A DNA stretch of 17,867 nt. Origin: a virus. Its lineage: Duplodnaviria > Heunggongvirae > Uroviricota > Caudoviricetes. The notes beneath the pieces were generated by a model. The model was not told the DNA's origin. It was given only the letters and a program-made list of their open reading frames with translations, and made no database searches. Numbering within the stretch: position 1 is the first letter of the stretch; the number at the start of each line of letters is the position of its first letter. The DNA lies in the IMG/VR virus record IMGVR_UViG_3300044294_000233. One strand, given 5' to 3'. Below, in pieces: positions 1,491 through 17,867 of the stretch. The position numbers were made by a program, and so were the translations under genes.

Positions 1491-3137
1491 AACCTAGCAG
1501 TGACGCAGACACAGCAGAACAGACGCCCGTATGGTCCGTCTCGCCCGCCAACCCCTACCCCTTCAGAGAGCGTGATCCGCCGTGACGGTGAGATCCGTTT
1601 CTTCATGGACGAGGAGTCAAACACCCCCTTCATCCAAAACGTTCAGGTTCCGACCGAGAACCCGGACCCGCCGTTTTCCGTTCAGAACTACAAGGGTTAT
1701 TCCCCCGATCCGAACTCACCACAGGCGCTCGCGGCCAACTGCATGGCTACGCTCTGCTCGGCCCAAAGGATGTTGAAGAAGTACCTCGGCACGCTCCCGA
1801 AGTGGGCGGCGGTCAAAGTTCTTCGCGTTTACCCGAACGCCGGGAACCAGTTGAACGCCTTCTACAATCGCGAGTCGTTGCAGTTCTTCACGGGCCGGAA
1901 CCCTGTGAACGGGCAGGTGGTCCACACCTGTTTGTCGAACGACGTGGTCACCCACGAATTCTTTCACTCGGTACTTGACTCTTTGAAGCCCGTGCTGTTC
2001 AATACTCCATTCATTGAACAGGGTGCGTTTCACGAAGCGTTCGCCGACTGCGGCTCGATCCTGCATGCGATGTCGATTGACCCGGTTTTGACCTATACTG
2101 CACAGCAGATGGACGCGGCCCAAAGCAGTACCATTGCGTCGTCCGTAGCACCGGATCTGGGCTATGCGATCAACGGGGTGATCGGCGGGCTGCGTGACGC
2201 TTCGGTTCCGTACTACTACATCGATCCGGCCACACTGCCGAGATCTGCGCCGAAGAACCAGTTGTCCAGCGAGGTCCACAGTTTCAGCCGCGTGTTCAGC
2301 AGTGCGTTTTACGCTGCGATCATGGCCGTTTACGCCAAAGTGAAGGCACCGGGCGGTATCGGCACACGCGAAGCACTGATCATCGCACGCGACGAAATGG
2401 CTACGGTTTTGTTCCGTGCGGTACAAAACGCCCCGCTGACTCCGAGGTACATGGCTTCAATTGCGAGTACCATGTTGACAGAACTCGCTACCGGGCCTTA
2501 CGCAACTGAAGTTGCGAGCGTTTTTGCGACGTGGGGGTTGACCACGGTTCGTGCGGCCTCGACCGAAAGCGTCGAGGTTTTGCCGACCGACAAGGCTGTG
2601 AAGATCGGCGATCAGGATTTCTTGATTCGCGAAAAAAGCACTCAGATGGTACTGGCGGATACAATGATTGTCGGTCAGTCTGACAATCCGCTGTACTTCT
2701 GTAAGGTTGATGTCCCGCACGAGCAACTTTTGGTCGCTCAGGGCTTCGGCATGGCGGGGTTCGTAGACGGCGCAGAAGACGAGGAAATTCTCGATGAAGT
2801 TAAACTTGGTCTTGACTATATTTGGGAGTCGGACCTAGTAACCCTTCACGGGGAGCCGGTCAAGGACCACCACGTTTTCAAGGTTGATGAATCAGGCTCG
2901 CTGCTGAGGACCAGCTATAATTCCGACGACGGCTACTTCAACAACGCCACCTTGCCCGGTGCGCCAGAGTTTGGTAAGCCGTGGAAACCAGAAAACAATT
3001 CGGGGTGTTGCTCCGGTTGTAAGAAGAAAGTAGACCCTCCAGTTCGTCCACCGAAACTGGGGTGCTACGTCAACGAACGAGTGTGCGGCTCTCGTACTGT
3101 GCGAAGCTGCCAAGTCGTCCGTCAAAAGGTGTGTTAA
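1476..3137 (+). CDS. M4 thermolysin-family-like zinc metallopeptidase with Pro-rich N-terminus and Cys-rich C-terminal tail, 553 aa
   Basis: RBS GGAGG 4 nt before the ATG. Motifs NAFYNRESLQFFTG, VVTHEFFHSV (HExxH) and EQGAFHEAFADCGS (third-ligand Glu, ExxxD), with EVHSF downstream, parallel thermolysin NAFWNG / VVAHELTH / NEAISD / GGVHIN. No signal peptide visible. C-terminal tail is CCSGCKKK...C...C...C...C. Confidence 0.65.
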   Translation: METKKNLAVTQTQQNRRPYGPSRPPTPTPSESVIRRDGEIRFFMDEESNTPFIQNVQVPTENPDPPFSVQNYKGYSPDPNSPQALAANCMATLCSAQRMLKKYLGTLPKWAAVKVLRVYPNAGNQLNAFYNRESLQFFTGRNPVNGQVVHTCLSNDVVTHEFFHSVLDSLKPVLFNTPFIEQGAFHEAFADCGSILHAMSIDPVLTYTAQQMDAAQSSTIASSVAPDLGYAINGVIGGLRDASVPYYYIDPATLPRSAPKNQLSSEVHSFSRVFSSAFYAAIMAVYAKVKAPGGIGTREALIIARDEMATVLFRAVQNAPLTPRYMASIASTMLTELATGPYATEVASVFATWGLTTVRAASTESVEVLPTDKAVKIGDQDFLIREKSTQMVLADTMIVGQSDNPLYFCKVDVPHEQLLVAQGFGMAGFVDGAEDEEILDEVKLGLDYIWESDLVTLHGEPVKDHHVFKVDESGSLLRTSYNSDDGYFNNATLPGAPEFGKPWKPENNSGCCSGCKKKVDPPVRPPKLGCYVNERVCGSRTVRSCQVVRQKVC

Positions 3138-3157
3138 CCAACCCAGAGAGGGCTATC

Positions 3158-3496
3158 ATGGCAGCTTTCCCAGAAGACGATTACAAGAACCGGAACGCGA
3201 TGTCGTCCGGCGTTCCCGGCGGATTCGGCGGGGGCGTCGATGACGATGATGACTTCGACGGCGACCTAGACGACGATGACGACGACTGGGACGACGACGA
3301 TGATCTCGATGACGATGACGATGACGATGACGACTTCGATGACGAAGACGACGATGACGACTGGGATGATGACGACGACTTCGATGACGAAGACGATGAC
3401 GACCTAGACGACGATGACGACTGGGATGATGACGATGACGATGACGACGACGACGACTTCGATGACGATGACGACGACGATGACGTGAACTTCTGA
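3158..3496 (+). CDS. Extreme poly-aspartate acidic protein (about 80% Asp, aromatic/Leu residue every 6-10 residues), 112 aa
   Basis: ATG 3158 is in frame with track ORF 3062..3496 and is preceded by GAGAGGG 5 nt upstream. Sequence is MAAFPEDDYKNRNAMSSGVPGGFGGGV followed by about 85 aa of D with spaced F/W/L. It lies 20 nt after the peptidase stop on the same strand, and the next gene starts 8 nt after its own stop. Confidence 0.5.
   Translation: MAAFPEDDYKNRNAMSSGVPGGFGGGVDDDDDFDGDLDDDDDDWDDDDDLDDDDDDDDDFDDEDDDDDWDDDDDFDDEDDDDLDDDDDWDDDDDDDDDDDFDDDDDDDDVNF
3230..3490. repeat. Low-complexity GAY-codon (GAC/GAT) tract encoding poly-Asp
   Basis: Near-continuous gacgatgacgac... with interspersed tgg/ttc/cta codons. 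Slippage-prone. Confidence 0.8.
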
Positions 3497-7293: not shown

Positions 7294-7646
7294 AAGAAGC
7301 TCTCGAAAACCTCAAATACTTTGTCGGCAAGGCCGTCAGCATCTTCACCGGACCCATCAACCGCGACTTTGACGAGCGACAGAAGTGCGACTACTTCGTC
7401 GGGATCGTCAAGTCGGTCGATTCGATGGGAATTATGACGCAGCACCCCATTACGGGCTGCTGCAACTACTATTTCTACAGCCAGATCGTCGGCATCGCCG
7501 AAGAACAGATTCTGGATTCTGCCAATCCCGAACACGCCACGGTCATTGCCGAAATCGAAGCAAAACGGCGGATGGCTACTACGCCCCCGCCGTCGAATAA
7601 TTTGGTCGATGTCAATGCCTTGTCCAAACTGGCCGGACTCCATTAA
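7290..7646 (+). CDS. Hypothetical protein, 118 aa, translationally coupled to primase
   Basis: ATGA start/stop overlap with the primase gene at 7290-7293. Consistent codon usage. No recognisable domain. Confidence 0.5.
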   Translation: MKEALENLKYFVGKAVSIFTGPINRDFDERQKCDYFVGIVKSVDSMGIMTQHPITGCCNYYFYSQIVGIAEEQILDSANPEHATVIAEIEAKRRMATTPPPSNNLVDVNALSKLAGLH

Positions 7647-9331
7647 GACTCGCGATAGATCCTTTCCGACACCGCCCTCATCTTCTGTTTGAAACCCGAC
7701 ACACCTTCGCCGAAGTGCTTTTTGACCTCTTCGTCATCGTCTTCATAGGTTTTCTTCTTTTTCTTCTCGCTGGACATTGCTTGGATGTCTTTGTACTTAC
7801 CGGCCTCAATCAACTTCAAGAATTTTCTCCTTAAAGTCTTGCTATCGGATATGTGATCCCATGTGTCCATCAGCTTTTTCACCAGTTCACGATCCGTCTT
7901 GACAACCTTTTCAATTTTGGAGGCGAACTCTTCGTATTGGGGTTCGTAGAGCCGTTGTTGGACAGCAGCCGTTTCTGGATTGTCTTCAAAATTGTCGCTT
8001 TTATCGTGGGACGAAAGTGCTTTCAAGTCATCGAAGTCCGACCGCTTTTCGGTGTCCTTTGGGTTTTCATCGGACATATTGTGAATCTCGGCGCGGTCGC
8101 CAACCTCTGGCTTTTCGTCTTCCGAACGATGACCCTCTTCTTTGTCTTTTCTGAGAAGTCTTGCAATTCGTTTCGTAACCTTGTCTTCGGTATCGTCCGG
8201 TCGTTCGACACGACCAGCTAGATCCAACTGATTGAAAAATTCGGGATAGTATTTGCTGAGGATCTCGTGCCTCGGATCATCAATTCGCAATACTTTTGGC
8301 AAAGTAAACGGACCACTTTGGCTGCGGTTAGTTATCCGCTTGCCGTTGTTTCCGCGATTGTTATGCAGATTCTTTCGTTTGCCAAGTTTGTTCCACGGCT
8401 CGTGTATCGCTCGGAGAATCTCCTGTTCTCTGGTGTTCAGACCACTCCATGCGTCACCCTTCTTTTTCTTCTGCCTGAAAAGCTCCAAGTATCTGTTAGT
8501 CGCAGCGTGGATTTCTTTCAGTGGGTATTTGTCTTCAGCCGTGTCATTTTTCGGACAATGTCCAGAACGACAAGCACCAATAATAAGTCTTTTCTTGGAA
8601 TCATCGAGTTTTCCGAAGATACCAAAAGTGGTTCTGGTGTCTTTGAATATGCCAAATTTTTCAGCCTGCTTATCGAGAGTCAGTTCGGGTTTTTCGGCCG
8701 GTTTTAGCGGGGCTGTACTGCCGTCGTCTCCCTCATCATCGGCGGCAGACCCAGGCACGAAATCGTCATCATGCACAGTCGGCGTTCTTGGTTCCGGCGT
8801 CGGCTCCGGTGTCGGACGAGGCTTTTCGGGTGCTGGTGTACTGCCCACACGAGTTGCCATACTGCGAACGCGATTCATCATGTCGTCCAAACTGGACGCG
8901 ATGGTCTGACGGAGTCTGGCGGTCCAGTTGTTTAGGATCTTTCGGATCAGTGGTTGTGGTGCTGCGGAGGCGTCTTCCCACAGGGTGTCCGCGAGGTTTT
9001 TGAGCATCGCGTATTCGCGGACGGTGGGCGGTTCGAGGTCGGTGCGGCCGAGTGCGCCGATCTTGTTTTGCCAGTAGTACGGGTTGGAACGACGGTCGCT
9101 ACCGAACAGGTTCTTCCACCAGTTGTGAACGCGGGTAAAGAACCCTCGCTTGGAAGGCAGCTTGTCGTTCATGATCTGCGTTTGCAAATCGTTGACGAGT
9201 CCGACGACCTTCTGGTCCAGATTTCTTCTGACGGAAGCCAGTTGCTGGTAAAGAGCTTCTAGTTCGGAGGCGAAGTCCTTGCTCCCCTCGAAAAAGCTCA
9301 GTTGTTCGTACAAATCGATTGTTCTCAGCAT
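7643..9331 (-). CDS. Large hypothetical protein, 562 aa, with Pro-rich linker and K/E/D-rich C-terminal half encoded by an AT-rich segment
   Basis: Long ORF. Start ATG 9329-9331 is preceded by AGGGGGA. PTPEPTPEPRTPT linker. C-terminal half is low-complexity charged. 3' end overlaps convergent gene 7290..7646 by 4 nt. Confidence 0.65.
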   Translation of the reverse strand: MLRTIDLYEQLSFFEGSKDFASELEALYQQLASVRRNLDQKVVGLVNDLQTQIMNDKLPSKRGFFTRVHNWWKNLFGSDRRSNPYYWQNKIGALGRTDLEPPTVREYAMLKNLADTLWEDASAAPQPLIRKILNNWTARLRQTIASSLDDMMNRVRSMATRVGSTPAPEKPRPTPEPTPEPRTPTVHDDDFVPGSAADDEGDDGSTAPLKPAEKPELTLDKQAEKFGIFKDTRTTFGIFGKLDDSKKRLIIGACRSGHCPKNDTAEDKYPLKEIHAATNRYLELFRQKKKKGDAWSGLNTREQEILRAIHEPWNKLGKRKNLHNNRGNNGKRITNRSQSGPFTLPKVLRIDDPRHEILSKYYPEFFNQLDLAGRVERPDDTEDKVTKRIARLLRKDKEEGHRSEDEKPEVGDRAEIHNMSDENPKDTEKRSDFDDLKALSSHDKSDNFEDNPETAAVQQRLYEPQYEEFASKIEKVVKTDRELVKKLMDTWDHISDSKTLRRKFLKLIEAGKYKDIQAMSSEKKKKKTYEDDDEEVKKHFGEGVSGFKQKMRAVSERIYRES

Positions 9332-9341
9332 AATCCCCCTG

Positions 9342-9370
9342 ATTATTTAGAGGGGCTGAACCAATTTCAA
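9342..9370 (-). promoter_or_regulatory. Sigma70-like promoter (-35 TTGAAA, 17-bp spacer, -10 AATAAT) for the 7643..9331 gene; predicted very short leader
   Basis: Minus strand reads TTGAAA-N17-AATAAT-cagggggatt-ATG. The -10 ends only 10 nt from the ATG. Confidence 0.35.
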
Positions 9371-9490
9371 AGTTGATGGATTGCAAAAACGGGTGTCCCA
9401 CGATGACGAGCATTATGCTCTCGAACATCAGGATACTGGACACGCACACGGCTTGATAGCCGTGTACCGTGCAGATGTACCCGTTGCATT

Positions 9491-9517
9491 CCAAATCGGT
9501 CCCAATTGGGAATTTGG
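9491..9517. promoter_or_regulatory. Operator-like dyad: perfect 12-bp palindrome TCCCAATTGGGA (9500-9511) flanked by CCAAAT / ATTTGG arms
   Basis: Read directly. The left arm carries a 3-nt insertion (cgg) relative to perfect symmetry. Lies in the 219-bp intergenic region upstream of the 7643..9331 promoter. Confidence 0.4.
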
Positions 9518-9550
9518 CTTTCGCCTCTTTCAACAAGAGGGTGATGTTTC

Positions 9551-10012
9551 TCAAGACTCTCCGATTTTCTTAACCGACATGAGAGACGAGTCGAACTCGT
9601 GGAACTCACTGGTGACGTACTGGAGCCTGAGTTCGTCAAAGTTTTTGGCCTCGTCGTCGTCGTTGATCTCGAAGTAGAACGACTTGCCGCGCCGCCCGAT
9701 GATCCTGAAGTTGTGCATCAACACATACGCCGCCGCTCCCAGATCGGTCAGGAACTTGCACGACGAAAAGTCTTGATCGGGGTCGGACTCATCCACCTTT
9801 TTCAAAGACATCAGGCAGTGGTCGAAGCGGTGAAATTCACTCACGAGGTAGTCCAGCTTCCACCGTTTGAACTCCTTGAGCTTTTCGGCCGGGACGTAAA
9901 AGAAAATCGTCTTGTCGCGACGACCAGACAATGCGCAACCCTTCATGGCCATGTACGCGGCTACGCCGAGGTCGCTCACCGGCATCGGGATACCTTTTGT
10001 TCCTTCTTTCAT
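9551..10012 (-). CDS. Protein made of two tandem copies of a roughly 65-aa domain (DLGxAAY...GRRxK...YVxSEFHxFDxxLMSxKK), 153 aa
   Basis: Internal duplication visible in the translation. RBS AAGGAAGG before ATG 10012. Confidence 0.6.
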   Translation of the reverse strand: MKEGTKGIPMPVSDLGVAAYMAMKGCALSGRRDKTIFFYVPAEKLKEFKRWKLDYLVSEFHRFDHCLMSLKKVDESDPDQDFSSCKFLTDLGAAAYVLMHNFRIIGRRGKSFYFEINDDDEAKNFDELRLQYVTSEFHEFDSSLMSVKKIGES

Positions 10013-10026
10013 TTGCCTTCCTTCTT

Positions 10027-10052
10027 GAACCGGGGAGCATGCTCCCCGGTTC
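10027..10052. promoter_or_regulatory. Perfect 26-bp palindrome GAACCGGGGAGCATGCTCCCCGGTTC between two co-directional minus-strand genes
   Basis: Two 13-nt arms with no spacer, read directly. On the plus strand it is followed by TTTGTTGTT. On the minus strand it sits 8 nt after the TGA of gene 10061 and 14 nt before the RBS of gene 9551. Confidence 0.55.
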
Positions 10053-10060
10053 TTTGTTGT

Positions 10061-10714
10061 TCATAGCACGTTTGCGATTTTCTTGCCCAACTCACGCGCC
10101 ACGACCTTCTCAGCCTCTCGCGGCGGCAGGATCGCCGACAGAGCGGTCACGGCCGCGTTTATCTCACGCATGTCGAACTTGGTTTCGATGCCCTTGACAC
10201 ACAACTTATTCTTCCAGCGGTTGTATGTCACCACGCCTCCACCCATGTATTTGGAGATCAACTCGAACATGCGGTTGTCGTTGGCCTCCACCTTCTTCGG
10301 ATCTGGGAAAACTTCTTGAACGGCACTGTAGATGTTCTCAAGGCTCTCCATGCCCCACTTGATTTCATCCACTGGGATCGGCGGGTGGTCCGTGAGCGCC
10401 CCCTTCTCGTCCATGATCTTTTTGATCAGATCCTTGTTCTCGTTCATCGTGAGCGTGATGTACTCTTTCGGCTGCTCGTACTCTTCGCACTGGAACAGCA
10501 GCTTGCCCTTCGGCAGTTCCGGGTAGGCTTCGGTTTTGGTGTACTTGGCCCGTTCTGTTTTGCGTTTGCCGGCCTTCCAGTCGTCAATGTTCTTCTGGAC
10601 TTCGTCCTCTTTGGCGAAGTCGTCTGCGGTCTTCATGTCCTCAAGCGTCGGCTTGCGGAGCCTGGGCTGATCCAACAGGTCGTTGATGTTGGGTTTGTTT
10701 TTCGTCTCATCCAT
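10061..10714 (-). CDS. Hypothetical protein, 217 aa, directly downstream of actin-like ATPase gene
   Basis: Start placed at Met24 (MDETKNK) of track ORF 10061..10783 by codon arithmetic (10783 minus 69). The track start is a GTG with no RBS and overlaps the upstream stop. AGGAAT lies 9 nt upstream of the chosen ATG. Confidence 0.5.
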   Translation of the reverse strand: MDETKNKPNINDLLDQPRLRKPTLEDMKTADDFAKEDEVQKNIDDWKAGKRKTERAKYTKTEAYPELPKGKLLFQCEEYEQPKEYITLTMNENKDLIKKIMDEKGALTDHPPIPVDEIKWGMESLENIYSAVQEVFPDPKKVEANDNRMFELISKYMGGGVVTYNRWKNKLCVKGIETKFDMREINAAVTALSAILPPREAEKVVARELGKKIANVL

Positions 10715-10733
10715 TTTGGGATTCCTATCTTTG

Positions 10734-11744
10734 TTACTTTCGGGTTGACGCCTCGGCAGCGAGCAGACACCCACGAGCAACACTGTACAAGGTGTCCTGC
10801 GGACGGATCACTTCGCTCACCTTGATCGGCAGCTTGGCGTCGTCCAGAACAGTCTTGAACATTTCCACGAAACCGGGCGGCGAACTGGTCCCACCGGAAA
10901 CAACGATGTCGAACGGGTCGTCCGTCCTTACGACTTTGCTGTTCTTGTTCAGGCCGTTTTTGATTTCGGATACGCAGTGTTCGATCATCAGCCGGTACTG
11001 GCTGATGATCGCCCGTTCGATGAGGTCACCGGGAGCTTTCGAGAGATCGATCTTCATCTTCTGTTTGTTGATGAAGGTCGGCGACTCGGCAGTGGCTCGC
11101 GCCGCCTGCTTGTCGATCCAGTCTCCGCTGTTGACGATTGCGAAAGAGAAGACGGGGTTGCCGAACATGGCCATACACAGGTTGACCATACCGGCCCCGA
11201 AGCTGATCCCGATTCCCGTGTACGCCTTCTTCGACAGTTCGGCGTAAACGAGGGCGAGGGCTTCGTTAATCGGGTGCGGATCGACTCGCATTCCGTCCTT
11301 GTTCCTGAAGGCTTTGAAGATGCCTTCGAGCGTCAGGCGGTGGAAGTTCGCGTCCGTTTCGACGTTGATTGCGTTGGCCGGGACGCAGAAGTAGAGAGGC
11401 TCCTTGTCCTCCTTCACCGTCTCGATCAGCGAGTGGATCATGATGCTCAAGATCTGGTAGGCTTCCTTTTCCTTCGGGTTCACGCACCCGTCCGACATCG
11501 GCCGCTTCAACTCCATCGAGTTGATCGCGTAGGCCATCTTGACCGCCGACTCGCCGAGGGCGTAAGCCAACTTGTCCCTCTTGATCAGCGGGACACCAGC
11601 GTTATTCATCATGTTGTAGACGAAGTCGTTTTCGAGAGGAATCTCGATAAATGCGTTGACTTCGCGCTTGTGAACGAAGTTTCCCTTTTCGTCACGCTTG
11701 GAGCATACGAGGTTGTATGTGCCAACGTCAAATCCGATTGCCAT
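10734..11744 (-). CDS. Actin-fold ATPase (ParM/MreB/FtsA-like), 336 aa
   Basis: Phosphate-1 MAIGFDVGTYNLV. Phosphate-2 GIGISFGAGMVNL. Adenosine motif DIVVSGGTSSPPGF. C-terminal YSVARGCLLAA, like MreB ...CVARGTG. Start taken at Met21, which is preceded by AAAGGGTGA; the track start at 11804 has no RBS. Confidence 0.7.
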   Translation of the reverse strand: MAIGFDVGTYNLVCSKRDEKGNFVHKREVNAFIEIPLENDFVYNMMNNAGVPLIKRDKLAYALGESAVKMAYAINSMELKRPMSDGCVNPKEKEAYQILSIMIHSLIETVKEDKEPLYFCVPANAINVETDANFHRLTLEGIFKAFRNKDGMRVDPHPINEALALVYAELSKKAYTGIGISFGAGMVNLCMAMFGNPVFSFAIVNSGDWIDKQAARATAESPTFINKQKMKIDLSKAPGDLIERAIISQYRLMIEHCVSEIKNGLNKNSKVVRTDDPFDIVVSGGTSSPPGFVEMFKTVLDDAKLPIKVSEVIRPQDTLYSVARGCLLAAEASTRK

Positions 11745-11778
11745 GTCTTTCACCCTTTCGTTTTGAGGTCTTTCGATC

Positions 11779-12033
11779 TCACTTGTCGTACTTTCCGAAT
11801 TCAATCGTTTCGGTGGATGGTGTGAACTCAGGTATCATCCACTCTGCTGCCTCTGCGGGCTTCGGTGCCATCTGCTTTTGCTCAGGCACCTGATCCGCAC
11901 TCGCTACCGACGCCACAGACATTCCCACCACACCGCCACCAAGATTCAGATTCAGGTCGATTACCAACCTGACCGTTATCTCTCCGTCGCGGGTCGTGAT
12001 GTTCACGTTCTGTGGTTTGATAACTTGAGGCAT
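11779..12033 (-). CDS. Small hypothetical protein, 84 aa, immediately upstream of actin-like gene
   Basis: ORF with weak RBS-like AGGTAA. Plausible codon usage. Position is analogous to an adaptor or regulator gene of a segregation module, but no motif was recognised. Confidence 0.4.
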   Translation of the reverse strand: MPQVIKPQNVNITTRDGEITVRLVIDLNLNLGGGVVGMSVASVASADQVPEQKQMAPKPAEAAEWMIPEFTPSTETIEFGKYDK

Positions 12034-12075: not shown

Positions 12076-13053
12076 TCATTCGATTTGTGGCTTGTACGGC
12101 CACTTCGCCATCATTTTTTCTATACCGTCCATCACCATGTCGGACGTGATCTCGCTCGCACACGGCTTGATCGTTTTCTTGCACTCTTTTTTGCACATCG
12201 ACCAGTTGAAGCACGGGCCGCAATCCCAGTTGCTGTCGTCCCTGTGCTTTTGAACGAGTACGAAGTCGAAATACTTTCCGTACACTTTTCCGTCGCAGTA
12301 GGTAAAAATTCCCACCAGCGGTTTCTTCAGCCCGCCCGCGCAGTGGAACGCCGACGTGTCAACGCTCAAGACGTAGTCGGCCGCGTCCAGTGCCGTTATC
12401 CACTGTCGCGTGTTCAAGCCGCTCAAGGTTCGGCACCCGATCTGATCGAGGTGTGGCATGGACTTGTTGTGCAGACAAACGACGTTGCACCCCTTCTGCC
12501 AAACTCGCGTGACGACTTCCGTCTGTAGTGCCGGCGACATGTCCTTGCCGATCTGAGCCGACGCGGGACACATTGCCAAGATCGGAGCGTTCGGACTCGA
12601 TACGCTGCGTTGCAGAAGTTGACGGGCGGCTTTCTTCTCTTCGGCCGTTACGCCGAGATACATTTCGTGCTTGCCAATTACCACGCCACAGTGGTTGGCC
12701 CAGATGTCGCTGCGGTGCTTGTCGGCTCTGGGTGCGATGGCGTTCTCGTACCGGCCGCACGCGAAGGTGATGTTGTAGACGAGGGTGAAGTCGGCTTTGT
12801 TGACGGTGCGGCAGTCAACCACTTCGTCAACAAATGGATGTCTCGCGGCGGCTTCCAAGTATTGTTGGGGGACGGCCCAGGTGATGTGACATTCGGGCAT
12901 CACACGTTTGAAGCTCTCGAACATCATCCTTTGCATCAGGATGTCGCCGAGGCCACCAACGTCGCGAACGACCAGCACCCTATCACGTCGCTCGTAGTAA
13001 TCTCTAAGACCCCACGCCGGCGCTTTTGAAGGTGTCTTTCTCTTGATCTTCAT
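12076..13053 (-). CDS. Glycosyltransferase family 9-like (heptosyltransferase-like) protein with Cys-rich C-terminal tail, 325 aa
   Basis: N-terminal RVLVVRDVGGLGDILMQ resembles the GT9 N-terminus (R..lGDvi). LSVDTSAFHCAGGLKKPLVGIFT matches the GT9 C-terminal motif (DSGpmHLAaAlgtPvvalFG). Tail is WDCGPCFNWSMCKKECKKTIKPC. Confidence 0.6.
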   Translation of the reverse strand: MKIKRKTPSKAPAWGLRDYYERRDRVLVVRDVGGLGDILMQRMMFESFKRVMPECHITWAVPQQYLEAAARHPFVDEVVDCRTVNKADFTLVYNITFACGRYENAIAPRADKHRSDIWANHCGVVIGKHEMYLGVTAEEKKAARQLLQRSVSSPNAPILAMCPASAQIGKDMSPALQTEVVTRVWQKGCNVVCLHNKSMPHLDQIGCRTLSGLNTRQWITALDAADYVLSVDTSAFHCAGGLKKPLVGIFTYCDGKVYGKYFDFVLVQKHRDDSNWDCGPCFNWSMCKKECKKTIKPCASEITSDMVMDGIEKMMAKWPYKPQIE

Positions 13054-13073: not shown

Positions 13074-13105
13074 AAACGAAAAAGCCCGACATTGCTGTCG
13101 GGCTT
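13074..13105 (-). terminator. Rho-independent terminator: 8-bp GC-rich stem (GCCCGACA / TGTCGGGC), 4-nt loop, then TTTTTCGTTT on the minus strand
   Basis: Read directly. Lies 54 nt downstream of the stop of gene 13157..13735. Confidence 0.75.
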
Positions 13106-13156
13106 TCTGTCCGGCCATTAAGGGCAGACATCGGTTCAAAAACCGAGGGGTGGTAC

Positions 13157-13735
13157 TCAGCTTGTCGGGGTGCTGCGGATCGTGAGGATGACCTGCACGG
13201 TTGCCGTGGTCGCGCCGGAAGCGGTGTTGTTGAACTCCAAGCGGCTGATGACGGCATCGCCGATGTTGAAGGTCTTGGTTTCGTTCGCCGAGAGGTCGAA
13301 GATGGCCGTCGAAAGACCGTTCATCTTCACGCGGATCGCCTGACCACTCGTGTTCTCGATGCTCGCCGAAACAGCCGCCGCGCCGTTGTCGCCCGTTACA
13401 TCGATCACGTTCGATGCGTACACAGAACCGCCAGCGATGGTCAGGTCGTAAACACGAGGGAAGGTGTTCTCAGCCGGGTCACTGGAGTAAATGCTGCCGT
13501 CGTCGGTCACGACTTCGATGAACGCCTTTTCCAGAGTCGTCTGCGGGTACGCGAACTGCTTCCAATAGTTGCAGTCCGTGAAGGTTTCACCGTCGAAAAG
13601 TTGACGGTAAGTCTTGTTCGGGCCGGTGACCCACATCGTCCGCTGAATCGACGGCGACATCTGTGCGCCAGTGGACGGGTTAAGGTCCAATACGCCCTGC
13701 TGAGTGTTGTTCAGCTTTACACGAAATACGCTCAT
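13157..13735 (-). CDS. Hypothetical small protein, 192 aa, candidate abundant virion structural protein
   Basis: Start at Met19 of track ORF, preceded by AAGGAGAACA (AGGAG 5 nt upstream). Followed by a strong intrinsic terminator, a layout typical of highly expressed structural genes. Ser/Thr/Asn-rich. Confidence 0.55.
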   Translation of the reverse strand: MSVFRVKLNNTQQGVLDLNPSTGAQMSPSIQRTMWVTGPNKTYRQLFDGETFTDCNYWKQFAYPQTTLEKAFIEVVTDDGSIYSSDPAENTFPRVYDLTIAGGSVYASNVIDVTGDNGAAAVSASIENTSGQAIRVKMNGLSTAIFDLSANETKTFNIGDAVISRLEFNNTASGATTATVQVILTIRSTPTS

Positions 13736-13789
13736 TGTTCTCCTTGATGGGGTGCCTAATCCCTGTCTTCTGTCTATATGTAGAAGCAC

Positions 13790-14404: not shown

Positions 14405-14624
14405 GTCGGACTCCAATCTGATCAAAGAAACGATGGACGATTTCTTCAGTAATTTTGGCGCGGCCGATGACCCGCATGCGAAATTACTCATTCAAATGGT
14501 GCTGGCCGAGGCTCTGCGTCCTGGCAACAAAAACAACAATCGATTTTGGGTGAAGTGCGATGCGAATGTTGAGAAATGTCCCGTCGTGCCGCATACAATA
14601 GTTCATGGGAAAACCGTGGTCTGA
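14403..14624 (+). CDS. Small hypothetical ORF, 73 aa, at the left edge of the AT-rich homing-endonuclease island
   Basis: AT-shifted codon usage like the HE gene. Its end overlaps the HE start by 20 nt. It is in the same frame (coordinate mod 3 = 0) as ORF 15462..15821. Weak call. Confidence 0.3.
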   Translation: MSDSNLIKETMDDFFSNFGAADDPHAKLLIQMVLAEALRPGNKNNNRFWVKCDANVEKCPVVPHTIVHGKTVV

Positions 14625-15465
14625 ATCCGAGTTGGAATTACTTCGTCAGCTTGGGCCGTCAAAACATTCGACTGAATTAATTGATTGCTTGCCGGGCCAT
14701 ACTGCACCTGCCATTGCCAAGATGAGGAACAGAATCGGCGTAGTTATTACGGCTGAGTGTCGTTCTAGGTCTGGCGAAAAGGCCGCTCGGTTTCGCAATG
14801 GCTGCAAACTCGACCAAAACCTTTCCTTGTCTGATTTTGACGACTGCGTTTTTCAGGTACTGATCGGCAGTATGTTGGGCGATGGTTGTGTGACCAAAAG
14901 CGACGACTGCAAAAACTACTTCTTCTGCGAAGGACATGGTTCCAAACAGACTGATTACCTCGAATGGAAAATGAACATCCTGTCGCCTTTCATGTCGCGA
15001 TGGAATTCAAACAAAAAGACGCACATTTCTACGGCCCGTCATCCGATATTTACTTCATTGAGAGATCGATTCTACAAGGCCAGGAAAAACTGCGACAAAA
15101 GCATAATTCCAGTAGACTTGATTTCCAAGCTGAATTTTTTCGGGTTGATGATTTGGTACATGGACGATGGCTACCTGGGGACTACCAGAACCGGCCGTCT
15201 TAGCAATGGACTCAAAAAATCGCCACAACCTTCAATATCAGCCAAAGGATGGGATCGTATCGACTTGGAGAACGCGGTGTCCATTTTGAATCAAAACTTA
15301 GATCTATCAATGTACATCAAGTATTACAAACACAGAAATGGTCAGAACAAGTTAGTTATGCTTGGCAAAAGCAGAGACTTCTTGCTGTCTAAATGGAAGA
15401 CAATTTCACAAGAACGTAAACTGCCGGCTTGTATGTCGTACAAGCTAGAATGCGAGGTTTGATGA
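14405..15465 (+). mobile_element. AT-rich island carrying the homing endonuclease gene (free-standing HEG or intron-like insertion)
   Basis: Local drop in GC and codon bias against a high-GC background, coinciding with the HE ORF and the small upstream ORF. Confidence 0.4.
14605..15462 (+). CDS. LAGLIDADG homing endonuclease (two-motif, monomeric type) with N-terminal Myb/HTH-like extension, 285 aa
   Basis: Two LAGLIDADG motifs: VLIGSMLGDGCV and FFGLMIWYMDDGYL. N-terminal WSESELELLRQL resembles a Myb/SANT-like helix. Codons are markedly more A/T-ending than surrounding genes. A stop lies immediately upstream in frame. Confidence 0.8.
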   Translation: MGKPWSESELELLRQLGPSKHSTELIDCLPGHTAPAIAKMRNRIGVVITAECRSRSGEKAARFRNGCKLDQNLSLSDFDDCVFQVLIGSMLGDGCVTKSDDCKNYFFCEGHGSKQTDYLEWKMNILSPFMSRWNSNKKTHISTARHPIFTSLRDRFYKARKNCDKSIIPVDLISKLNFFGLMIWYMDDGYLGTTRTGRLSNGLKKSPQPSISAKGWDRIDLENAVSILNQNLDLSMYIKYYKHRNGQNKLVMLGKSRDFLLSKWKTISQERKLPACMSYKLECEV

Positions 15466-16938: not shown

Positions 16939-17867
16939 TTACCTCCTACACGGTACGAATCTGACGCACTGGCCCTCGCCCTCGTCGTCGCTGAGTAGTT
17001 TGCTCATGTCGAGTTCGACCTTGTGCGTGATCGGGTCGCCACGGTACACCATTTCCACTTCCGGCTTCTCTGGCAGGACCAAGTGGATCGCGGTCGGGAC
17101 GTTGCTGACCAAGTGGATCGCGGTCGGCGCACCCACCAGTTGGATCGATTCAGGTACGCCCACCAACTCCATCATCAGCTTCCTCGGCACGTCCTCGGCC
17201 ATTCGCAATTCGATGAACTCAGGTACGTCCTTGTTCTTCAAGAAAATGAATTCCGGTACGTTAGTCGCCCTCAGTTCAAAGAACTCAGGCAGGTTGTGTT
17301 TCAAAGAGATCTCGTTCGGAATCGGCGTCTCGGCCTTGATTTCGATGTAGGTCGGCAACGTGGTTCCGCGAACCTCGATGAACATTGGCAGATCGTGTAC
17401 CAGTCTCATGTCCGGTATTTCCGGCACCACGACCTTGATCTCGGACGGGATGCCGATGTCTTGCGCGGTTACCAGCGGAGGGTCCGACTGGAAGCTGTCA
17501 ACGAAGCTCTCCTCGAACCCGCCCGACATCATCGCCATCGGCGTCACCGACGTACTTCCGCAACTGACCGTGACCACGCAACTCAGAACCGGCACCGGGT
17601 TCCAGTTCACGTCGATTACCGTGGGGACGTTCGCGTTGTATGCGAAGATTGAAGTCGGGATGTTGATGTTGTACCCCAAGATCGAAGTCGGGATATTGAC
17701 GTTGTATGCCAAGATCGAAGTCGGGATATTGACGTTGTACGCCAAGATCGAAGTCGGGATGTCAACGTTGTACGCCAAGATCGAGGTCGGGAAAGACCCG
17801 TAGACGTTGATCGAGGTCGGGAAAGATCCGTAGACGTTAATCGTTGTCGGGATGTTCGCGTAAACAT
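16939..17867 (-). CDS. Tandem-repeat protein (11-aa repeats (A/G)YN(V/I)NIPTSIL, then degenerate 11-12 aa xPEFIELRxxx repeats), 5' end beyond window; probable fiber or beta-solenoid structural protein
   Basis: The frame stays open to the window edge. The track Met at 17778 is internal. At least eight 11-aa repeats are visible (VYGSFPTSIN, AYNVDIPTSIL, AYNVNIPTSIL, ...). Its stop is 1 nt before the start of the next gene. Confidence 0.6.
   Translation of the reverse strand, partial: VYANIPTTINVYGSFPTSINVYGSFPTSILAYNVDIPTSILAYNVNIPTSILAYNVNIPTSILGYNINIPTSIFAYNANVPTVIDVNWNPVPVLSCVVTVSCGSTSVTPMAMMSGGFEESFVDSFQSDPPLVTAQDIGIPSEIKVVVPEIPDMRLVHDLPMFIEVRGTTLPTYIEIKAETPIPNEISLKHNLPEFFELRATNVPEFIFLKNKDVPEFIELRMAEDVPRKLMMELVGVPESIQLVGAPTAIHLVSNVPTAIHLVLPEKPEVEMVYRGDPITHKVELDMSKLLSDDEGEGQCVRFVPCRR
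17635..17867. repeat. 33-bp (and 30-bp) tandem DNA repeats, at least 7 units, coding for the 11-aa protein repeats
   Basis: Units such as gttgtatgccaagatcgaagtcgggatattgac recur head-to-tail with a few substitutions. They continue to the window edge. Confidence 0.8.

Follow-up and report, generated by a model that had tools for sequence, protein, structure and literature searches.

A Volactin-family actin homologue and its two conserved partner genes as a candidate cytoskeletal module of very large phages

We describe an actin-fold ATPase and its gene neighbourhood in a window of 17,867 nucleotides (nt), the whole stretch of DNA analysed here, from the tailed-phage record IMGVR_UViG_3300044294_000233 (Caudoviricetes) of IMG/VR. 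The ATPase, a protein of 336 amino acids (aa) encoded on the minus strand at 10734–11744, almost certainly belongs to the Volactin family, and no other gene in its neighbourhood is as well conserved. It is accompanied on the same strand by two small genes that are kept with it in nearly all related loci: one for an acidic 84-aa protein, which adjoins it upstream (11779–12033), and one for a 153-aa protein with an internal tandem duplication, which lies downstream (9551–10012). Judged from sequence comparison, this module belongs to a clade of very large phages; the window itself covers only 17.9 kb, and its own genome is presumed to be of that size class. The 336-aa protein probably polymerises, and we lean slightly toward reading the whole as an ATP-dependent phage filament system with two dedicated partners, which would organise cells infected by very large phages.

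The actin-fold ATPase and its relatives

The 336-aa protein matched the Pfam Volactin model PF25216 with 233.8 bits (E = 4.6e-69; cutoff 35), and the match ran from end to end, residues 1–330 covering profile positions 1–321 of 321. Models of related families stayed below their thresholds. The MamK model NF040964 of NCBIfam gave a partial match of 25.4 bits against a cutoff of 400, the MreB models PF06723 and PRK13927 (NCBIfam) gave 23.4 bits against 27 and 19.2 bits against 293, respectively, and the Pfam Actin model also matched only under threshold. Because PF25216 was passed and the MamK and MreB models were not, we assign the protein to the Volactin family and to neither of the other two. 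The mechanically called open reading frame (ORF) begins at a TTG codon at 11804; homologues of 333–336 aa align from the residue encoded by the ATG at 11744, which we therefore take as the start. In the protein database, 1694 clusters are homologous to the actin, most of them 333–336 aa long and 65–70% identical to it, and PF25216 was found on every one of the best 120 of these 1694 clusters. The phage proteins form a tight clade, with 65–95% identity inside it and only ~30–40% identity to other representatives of the family.

The nearest solved structures were sought with a profile built from 53 diverse Volactin-family members (broad alignment A4), which matched 53 PDB sequences at E ≤ 10. 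MamK (5JYG/5LJV) was the best match (E = 1e-13), followed by BeeR (8R2N, E = 1.7e-9), MreB (E about 1e-7), FtsA (E = 1e-5), PilM (E = 5e-3), DnaK (E = 0.045) and eukaryotic actin (E about 0.4), with weak matches also to EutJ and glycerol dehydratase reactivase. A narrower actin profile (A1) had no PDB match at E ≤ 0.01. As a consistency check only, a Foldseek search with a low-confidence AlphaFold2 (AF2) model of the actin (predicted local distance difference test, pLDDT, 56) ranked MamK, MreB and actin first. The preliminary description of this DNA, made from the letters alone, had recognised an actin/MreB-type ATPase in a phage, flanked by co-directional genes for an 84-aa protein, a 217-aa protein and a tandem-duplicated small protein. 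All four genes are present where they had been placed, co-directional and on the minus strand, and the ATPase is borne out by the full-length PF25216 match and by the filament formers MamK, BeeR and MreB as nearest solved relatives; a grouping with Hsp70 or sugar kinases was not seen in these profile and structure searches.

The family takes its name from volactin (HVO_2015) of Haloferax volcanii, which forms dynamic cytoplasmic filaments in vivo (PMC10869688). The protein of the window shares with this family the full-length profile match and the family-specific SFGAG phosphate-2 motif, and differs from volactin in being phage-encoded and in having two partner genes without family annotation. 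The role of volactin in the rod-to-disk shape transition of its archaeal host is not transferable to the phage protein. BeeR, a Verrucomicrobiota actin, assembles into three-stranded tubules with ATP (PMC11929497), and both BeeR and MamK, the closest solved structures by profile and Foldseek alike, are ATP-dependent polymers. MamK positions large cargo, a task similar in kind to the role proposed by analogy below. The window protein nevertheless belongs to neither family, has other partner proteins and carries Ser where MamK has the phosphate-2 Asp. It likewise shares the fold of MreB, with sub-threshold Pfam and NCBIfam matches and PDB matches at E ~1e-7, but falls under every MreB cutoff and lacks a MreC, MreD or RodZ context.

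The phosphate-1 motif (D6-x-G8-T9), the adenosine motif (G284-G285-T286) and E161 are conserved, the last at the catalytic position and aligned to the Glu of the MamK SEP segment. Phosphate 2 reads S181-F-G-A-G, against D-I-G-A-G-T in MamK, and S181 is invariant across the whole Volactin-like alignment, so the replacement of Asp by Ser is family-wide and not specific to phages. This serine and the weak PDB matches to EutJ, DnaK and glycerol dehydratase reactivase would fit a non-polymerising ASKHA (acetate and sugar kinase/Hsp70/actin) ATPase, a chaperone, kinase or activase-like enzyme that shares just the fold. We regard such an enzyme as highly improbable, given that those matches are at least 10 orders of magnitude weaker than the ones to MamK, BeeR and MreB, that the serine is common to a family named after a protein that is a polymer in vivo, and that the unusually high sequence constraint on the actin, described below, fits a polymer.

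Some actin homologues are ~700 aa long and are interrupted by inteins, for which there are two independent insertion sites, both within the most conserved motifs of the protein. At the first, between the positions of window residues 181 and 182, the intein splits the phosphate-2 loop (GVS|C...HN|CGAG; homologues P0226, P0232, P0349 and P0368). The second lies at about window residues 205–207, within the invariant SGDWID motif (P0236, P0264 and P0340). Hint and LAGLIDADG domains were confirmed in P0226, P0232 and P0236.

A three-gene module in huge phages

We compared the proteins of the window with those of 89 related loci and derived conservation statistics from 80 IMG/VR loci. The actin stood out with a median identity of 67% to the window protein (interquartile range 65–68), against 53% for a 210-aa gene, 52% for the 153-aa gene, 51% for the primase and 27–42% for the remaining neighbours. 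A polymer with many interfaces would be expected to show constraint of this kind. The comparison confirms the small co-directional partner genes noticed in the preliminary description and shows them to be strongly conserved together with the actin. Of the 78 loci with sequence upstream, 76 contain the 84-aa gene, in 67 of these 76 no more than 60 nt from the actin; the 153-aa gene occurs in all 78 loci with sequence downstream and starts at most 140 nt past the end of the actin gene in 63 of 79 loci. The trio is kept even in locus L092, despite an actin identity of only 40%. There, the upstream partner of 73 aa retains 'KDGEITINLNLNIE' and 'YIPDE', and the downstream partner, also 73 aa, consists of one copy of the repeat unit of the 153-aa protein.

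The 84-aa family comprises 481 homologous clusters, and the best 120 of these 481 are 69–103 aa long, with no Pfam domain and no fusions among them. In the family alignment, a beta-hairpin-like N-terminal segment of ~30 residues (MPQLIKPxxVKVxTKDGEVxVSIxLxLNINLN) is followed by a variable charged linker and a conserved C-terminal peptide, W-x-I-P-D/E-F...K-I-x-F-G-K. The 153-aa protein consists of two tandem units of ~70 aa, which align with each other at a local score of 144, and its AF2 model (pLDDT 93.4) has two beta-alpha-beta-beta-alpha-alpha domains, with no significant match to solved structures. The domain has some likeness to small phage domains of the DUF5659 type, but the Pfam scans list no match to DUF5659, so we claim no membership. 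A single-domain homologue occurs in the deeper-branching LR756511, L003 and L092, and we therefore consider the tandem duplication to be derived. Median isoelectric points (pI) are 5.2 for the 84-aa family and 6.2 for the 153-aa family. PHROGs and NCBIfam gave no match for either partner, nor for the 217-aa and 562-aa proteins described below.

In a tblastn search of 50,697 phage records, the actin had only two matches, both in uncultured huge phages: LR756511 (595 kb, 59.6% identity) and LR745208 (485 kb, 32.6% identity). Megablast of the whole window against the same records gave no match. Single-sequence locus searches of genome and viral collections likewise gave no match; alignment-based searches succeeded, and a pattern search of IMG/VR yielded 197 confirmed loci on contigs of up to 532 kb. 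A further homologue sits on a 673-kb contig (L093), where the gene order is kept and FBPase, Rieske, Mpo1-like and Acb1-like genes lie nearby. In L092, a gene for ribosomal protein S21 (9583–9894) is found two genes downstream of the module. The window itself also encodes a PHROG_47 DNA primase, a Gp80 fibre-like protein and a LAGLIDADG endonuclease.

The same pattern search applied to one genome per species (185,579 species) returned only seven loci, all on scattered contigs of metagenome-assembled genomes (MAGs) assigned to Acidobacteriota, Actinomycetota, Bdellovibrionota, Neisseriaceae, Planctomycetota, Flavobacteriaceae and Verrucomicrobiales. A cellular origin is rejected for four of them (L001–L004), which share the phage synteny; the remaining MAG contigs are too short to tell. 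Phage synteny on unrelated MAGs is the signature of mis-binning, and we take these four to be phage contigs placed in the wrong bins.

LR745208 represents a second huge-phage lineage. Its Volactin-family gene (9938–10981 in locus L091; 33% identical) may have been acquired independently and may serve another role. The genes around this homologue are large ORFs, one of them of 1665 aa, and resemble structural genes in size and composition alone. Near the module of the window lie PKD-domain and Gp80 fibre-like genes, and the neighbouring beta-rich 210-aa gene (13157–13789, minus strand) shows high conservation and is followed by a terminator of its own. These features would suit an actin-fold protein that builds or moves giant capsids or tails, or is itself packaged. 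We nevertheless judge a structural or assembly role in the virion to be improbable, because the PHROGs search gave no homology to known virion proteins and the module is convergent to the primase gene.

Accessory genes, the palindrome and other features of the window

Read along the minus strand, the order is the 210-aa gene, a terminator, a glycosyltransferase gene, the 84-aa gene, the actin, a 217-aa gene, a palindrome, the 153-aa gene and a 562-aa gene, with all genes co-directional. This layout of small co-directional genes beside an actin-like ATPase resembles parMR, alfAB and alp7AR, and the preliminary description had accordingly proposed a ParMRC/Alp-type operon, in which a DNA-binding adaptor couples filaments to a centromere. 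Under such an arrangement, the actin would move phage or plasmid-prophage genomes through the 153-aa or the 84-aa protein, bound to a site such as the palindrome. There is precedent in AlpC, a known prophage actin with an adaptor (PMC4446434). Furthermore, the tandem-domain 153-aa protein could serve as a pseudo-dimer, and the module lies near replication genes (the primase in the window, gyrase B and PhoH in L092).

The comparison speaks against this proposal, and we consider segregation of this type quite unlikely. No ParM, AlfA or Alp protein was among the PDB matches, of which there were 53 at E ≤ 10, and no sequence relationship to ParMRC, AlfAB, Alp7AR or AlpC/AlpA was detected. What is shared with these systems is a mobile-element actin-like ATPase with small co-directional partner genes. 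The predicted fold of the 153-aa protein is neither a ribbon-helix-helix (RHH) nor a winged helix-turn-helix, and the conserved partners have pI values of ~5–6, so the RHH or basic adaptor of the known systems has no counterpart here. Iterated non-coding repeats, as expected of a centromere, were found neither in the intergenic region 9332–9550, in 9300–9600, nor elsewhere in the module or window, and the tandem repeats of the 89 related loci are mostly in-frame and sited where the gene of the 562-aa family sits. Finally, the ParMRC-type systems belong to plasmids and prophages, whereas the actin described here occurs in virulent-looking phage genomes of 0.5–0.7 Mb.

The 217-aa gene (10061–10714, minus strand, counted from its ATG) was rejected as a core adaptor. 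Just ~20 loci, which form a subclade, have such a mid gene separating the actin from the 153-aa gene, and the mid genes of these loci (181–412 aa) make up one fast-evolving family that shares only its C-terminal ~100 aa. Pfam, like PHROGs and NCBIfam, gave no family match for the 217-aa protein. Between this gene and the purine-rich ribosome-binding site of the 153-aa gene lies the palindrome GAACCGGGGAGCATGCTCCCCGGTTC (10027–10052; no strand assigned), which had been put forward as a centromere-like or operator site. It is indeed perfect, with 13+13 bases making up 26 bp, and occurs once in the window; by our own estimate, ~3e-4 such palindromes would be expected by chance in 17.9 kb. As RNA, it would fold into a hairpin with an 11-bp stem (−23.2 kcal/mol, z = −3.9).

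The proposed centromere or operator role did not survive comparison with other loci. Two close relatives of the window carry, at the same position, hairpins of wholly different sequence (ATGGTCCGAAGAGC...GCTCTTCGGACCAT in L088 and GCCCCCGGTGAA...TTCACCGGGGGC in L089). Almost all of the mid-gene loci examined have a strong hairpin with its own sequence, L083 being the exception, and loci without the mid gene mostly have none. Because position and structure are conserved while the sequence is free to change, the palindrome is best read as an RNA stem-loop and not as a centromere or operator; its single copy and its tie to an accessory gene argue further against partition. The window hairpin has no U-tract on the coding strand, and the T-run is on the opposite strand. 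From this distribution, the 217-aa gene and its hairpin are taken to be a lineage-specific, accessory, moron-like insertion, in which the stem-loop would be, for example, a terminator-like or mRNA-stabilising element of the cassette.

The 5' boundary of the actin transcription unit is probably the canonical intrinsic terminator at 13081–13106 (minus strand), a 12-bp GC-rich stem followed by the U-tract UUUUUCGUUU, for which a 71-nt stretch folds at −30.8 kcal/mol (z = −4.7). This terminator lies directly 3' of the 210-aa gene, which suggests that the latter is a separate unit, probably highly expressed; the 210-aa protein had one marginal PHROG match (E = 0.056). The first gene after the terminator encodes a 325-aa GT9-like (heptosyltransferase-like) glycosyltransferase (12076–13053, minus strand; PF01075, E = 2.5e-8), whose match to TIGR02193 is far under the cutoff of that model. 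This gene is variable, occurring directly upstream of the trio in 54 of the 80 loci, and L092 has a larger GT9-domain protein in its place.

The glycosyltransferase raises an alternative in which the actin serves as a scaffold in the manner of MreB. It would guide glycosyltransferases or take over the synthesis of host wall or polysaccharide, for instance so that the cell becomes large enough for a giant virion. Further upstream there are two MptE/DUF115-like genes, and volactin itself affects cell shape (PMC10869688). Moreover, in two Planctomycetota proteins, P0332 (MBI4566665.1) and P0271 (MBP9891465.1), which are distant cellular relatives, the Volactin domain is fused to Wzz/GNVR/ParA-like tyrosine-kinase modules or to N-terminal extensions of ~580 aa; the Wzz/GNVR/BY-kinase fusion is that of P0332. 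These architectures hint that some cellular members of the family may work at the envelope. For the phage actin, we hold manipulation of envelope or cell shape to be unlikely: the glycosyltransferase is dispensable, as about one third of the loci lack it, in contrast to the 84-aa and 153-aa partners, which nearly every locus has; the MreB models score sub-threshold; and by inspection alone the actin has no obvious membrane-targeting helix.

Downstream of the module, a promoter-like site (9342–9370) lies within the 219-nt gap between the 153-aa gene and the gene for a highly charged, low-complexity 562-aa protein (7643–9331, minus strand). The 562-aa family was found in 53 of the 80 loci, with a median identity of 27% over ~23% of its length. 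Its homologues in L010, L015, L028, L057–L063, L066, L077 and others contain hypervariable in-frame tandem repeats, with periods of 18–54 nt and up to nine copies, which differ between closely related phages. Scans of the window for tRNAs and Rfam families were empty. Elsewhere in the window, a free-standing LAGLIDADG homing endonuclease gene (14605–15462, plus strand; PF03161, E = 4e-21) has a counterpart in none of 87 related loci and seems to be a mobile element that entered this genome recently. At 3062–3496 (plus strand), imperfect tandem repeats of 9–15 nt encode a 144-aa protein (pI 4.05) that consists almost entirely of Asp, with Phe, Trp and Leu scattered in between, and that might mimic DNA or serve as an acidic decoy. 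At least 4–6 in-frame tandem repeats of 33 nt (and of 30 nt) occupy 17621–17838, at the upstream end of, and just past, a minus-strand ORF of 279 aa (16939–17778), and overlap the ORF 17616–17867, which runs off the end of the window.

Proposed role and significance

We propose that the 336-aa protein, a phage-borne Volactin-family ATPase, most likely binds ATP and assembles into filaments inside infected cells. It would be the hub of a three-gene module inherited jointly through a large clade of huge phages. Short conserved terminal peptides on flexible linkers are typical for docking to actin-fold partners, as with the ParR tail and ParM, PilN and PilM, or the FtsZ tail and FtsA, and by analogy the C-terminal W-x-IPDF...FGK peptide of the 84-aa protein, on its flexible linker, may dock onto the actin. 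This peptide also resembles the C-terminal D-IP-x-F peptide through which FtsZ binds FtsA and ZipA; as a lead only, the 84-aa protein could then tether the filament to cargo or even rival FtsZ in binding division proteins of the host. The 153-aa protein, predicted to be a (pseudo)dimeric alpha+beta protein, may act as a second filament- or cargo-binding factor.

The resulting cytoskeleton would organise large cargo, for example the replicating genomes or assembly sites of phages of 0.5–0.7 Mb, and the module would be functionally analogous to the PhuZ tubulin spindle and not to ParMRC-type centromere segregation. With PhuZ and TubZ it shares the character of a cytoskeletal NTPase of very large phages, and the positioning of replication or assembly is an analogy that we propose; the folds, tubulin in the one case and actin in the other, are different and the proteins are not homologous. 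A PhuZ-like positioning role, which the preliminary description had raised as its alternative, is by this analogy the best available candidate reading, and we regard a role of the module in spatial organisation as an evenly balanced proposition. The most specific version, in which mega-phages (~0.3–0.7 Mb) build their own three-protein actin cytoskeleton with the 84-aa protein as tail-peptide adaptor or regulator and the 153-aa protein as second filament binder, is tentative and rather doubtful.

Several points weigh against this proposal. The phosphate-2 Asp is replaced by Ser throughout the family, a change that may affect hydrolysis. The AF2 model of the actin, computed from the shallow A1 alignment, is poor, and its pLDDT of 56 is too low for interface analysis. 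Docking of the 84-aa peptide onto the actin is an analogy, not a result. LR745208 carries its actin without the 84-aa or 153-aa partner, and among the structural-looking large ORFs mentioned above. The variable GT9-like gene in the actin operon and the fusion of distant cellular homologues to polysaccharide co-polymerase and tyrosine-kinase domains both hint at the envelope.

Phage cytoskeletons are known mainly from the PhuZ tubulin of nucleus-forming jumbo phages and from a few actins of plasmids and prophages. A survey of huge phages mentions tubulin/PhuZ only and no actin homologue (PMC7162821), and actin homologues are not mentioned in a 2026 review of jumbo-phage biology or in a 2026 review of viral gigantism. 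In the full-text literature, the coverage of which is incomplete, we found no description of a Volactin- or MamK-like actin in jumbo or huge phages and no paper citing PF25216. The fold, the family and the existence of phage and plasmid actins are thus known, whereas the huge-phage actin clade, its extreme conservation and the two partners without family assignment appear to be new.

Hundreds of contigs from huge phages carry an actin homologue that surpasses all neighbouring genes in conservation and is accompanied by two near-invariant, unannotated partners. If the protein does not polymerise, it would still be an abundant and strongly constrained phage ATPase. If it does, virus-built cytoskeletons for intracellular organisation would have at least two origins in large phages, each on its own fold, and the known biology of the Volactin/MamK/BeeR branch, one of bacterial and archaeal actins, would come to include viruses. 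The module would then offer a compact three-protein actin system that could be expressed heterologously. Should the proposed role be correct, the PhuZ tubulin spindle would gain its first counterpart built from actin, and a new set of actin-binding proteins would come with it.

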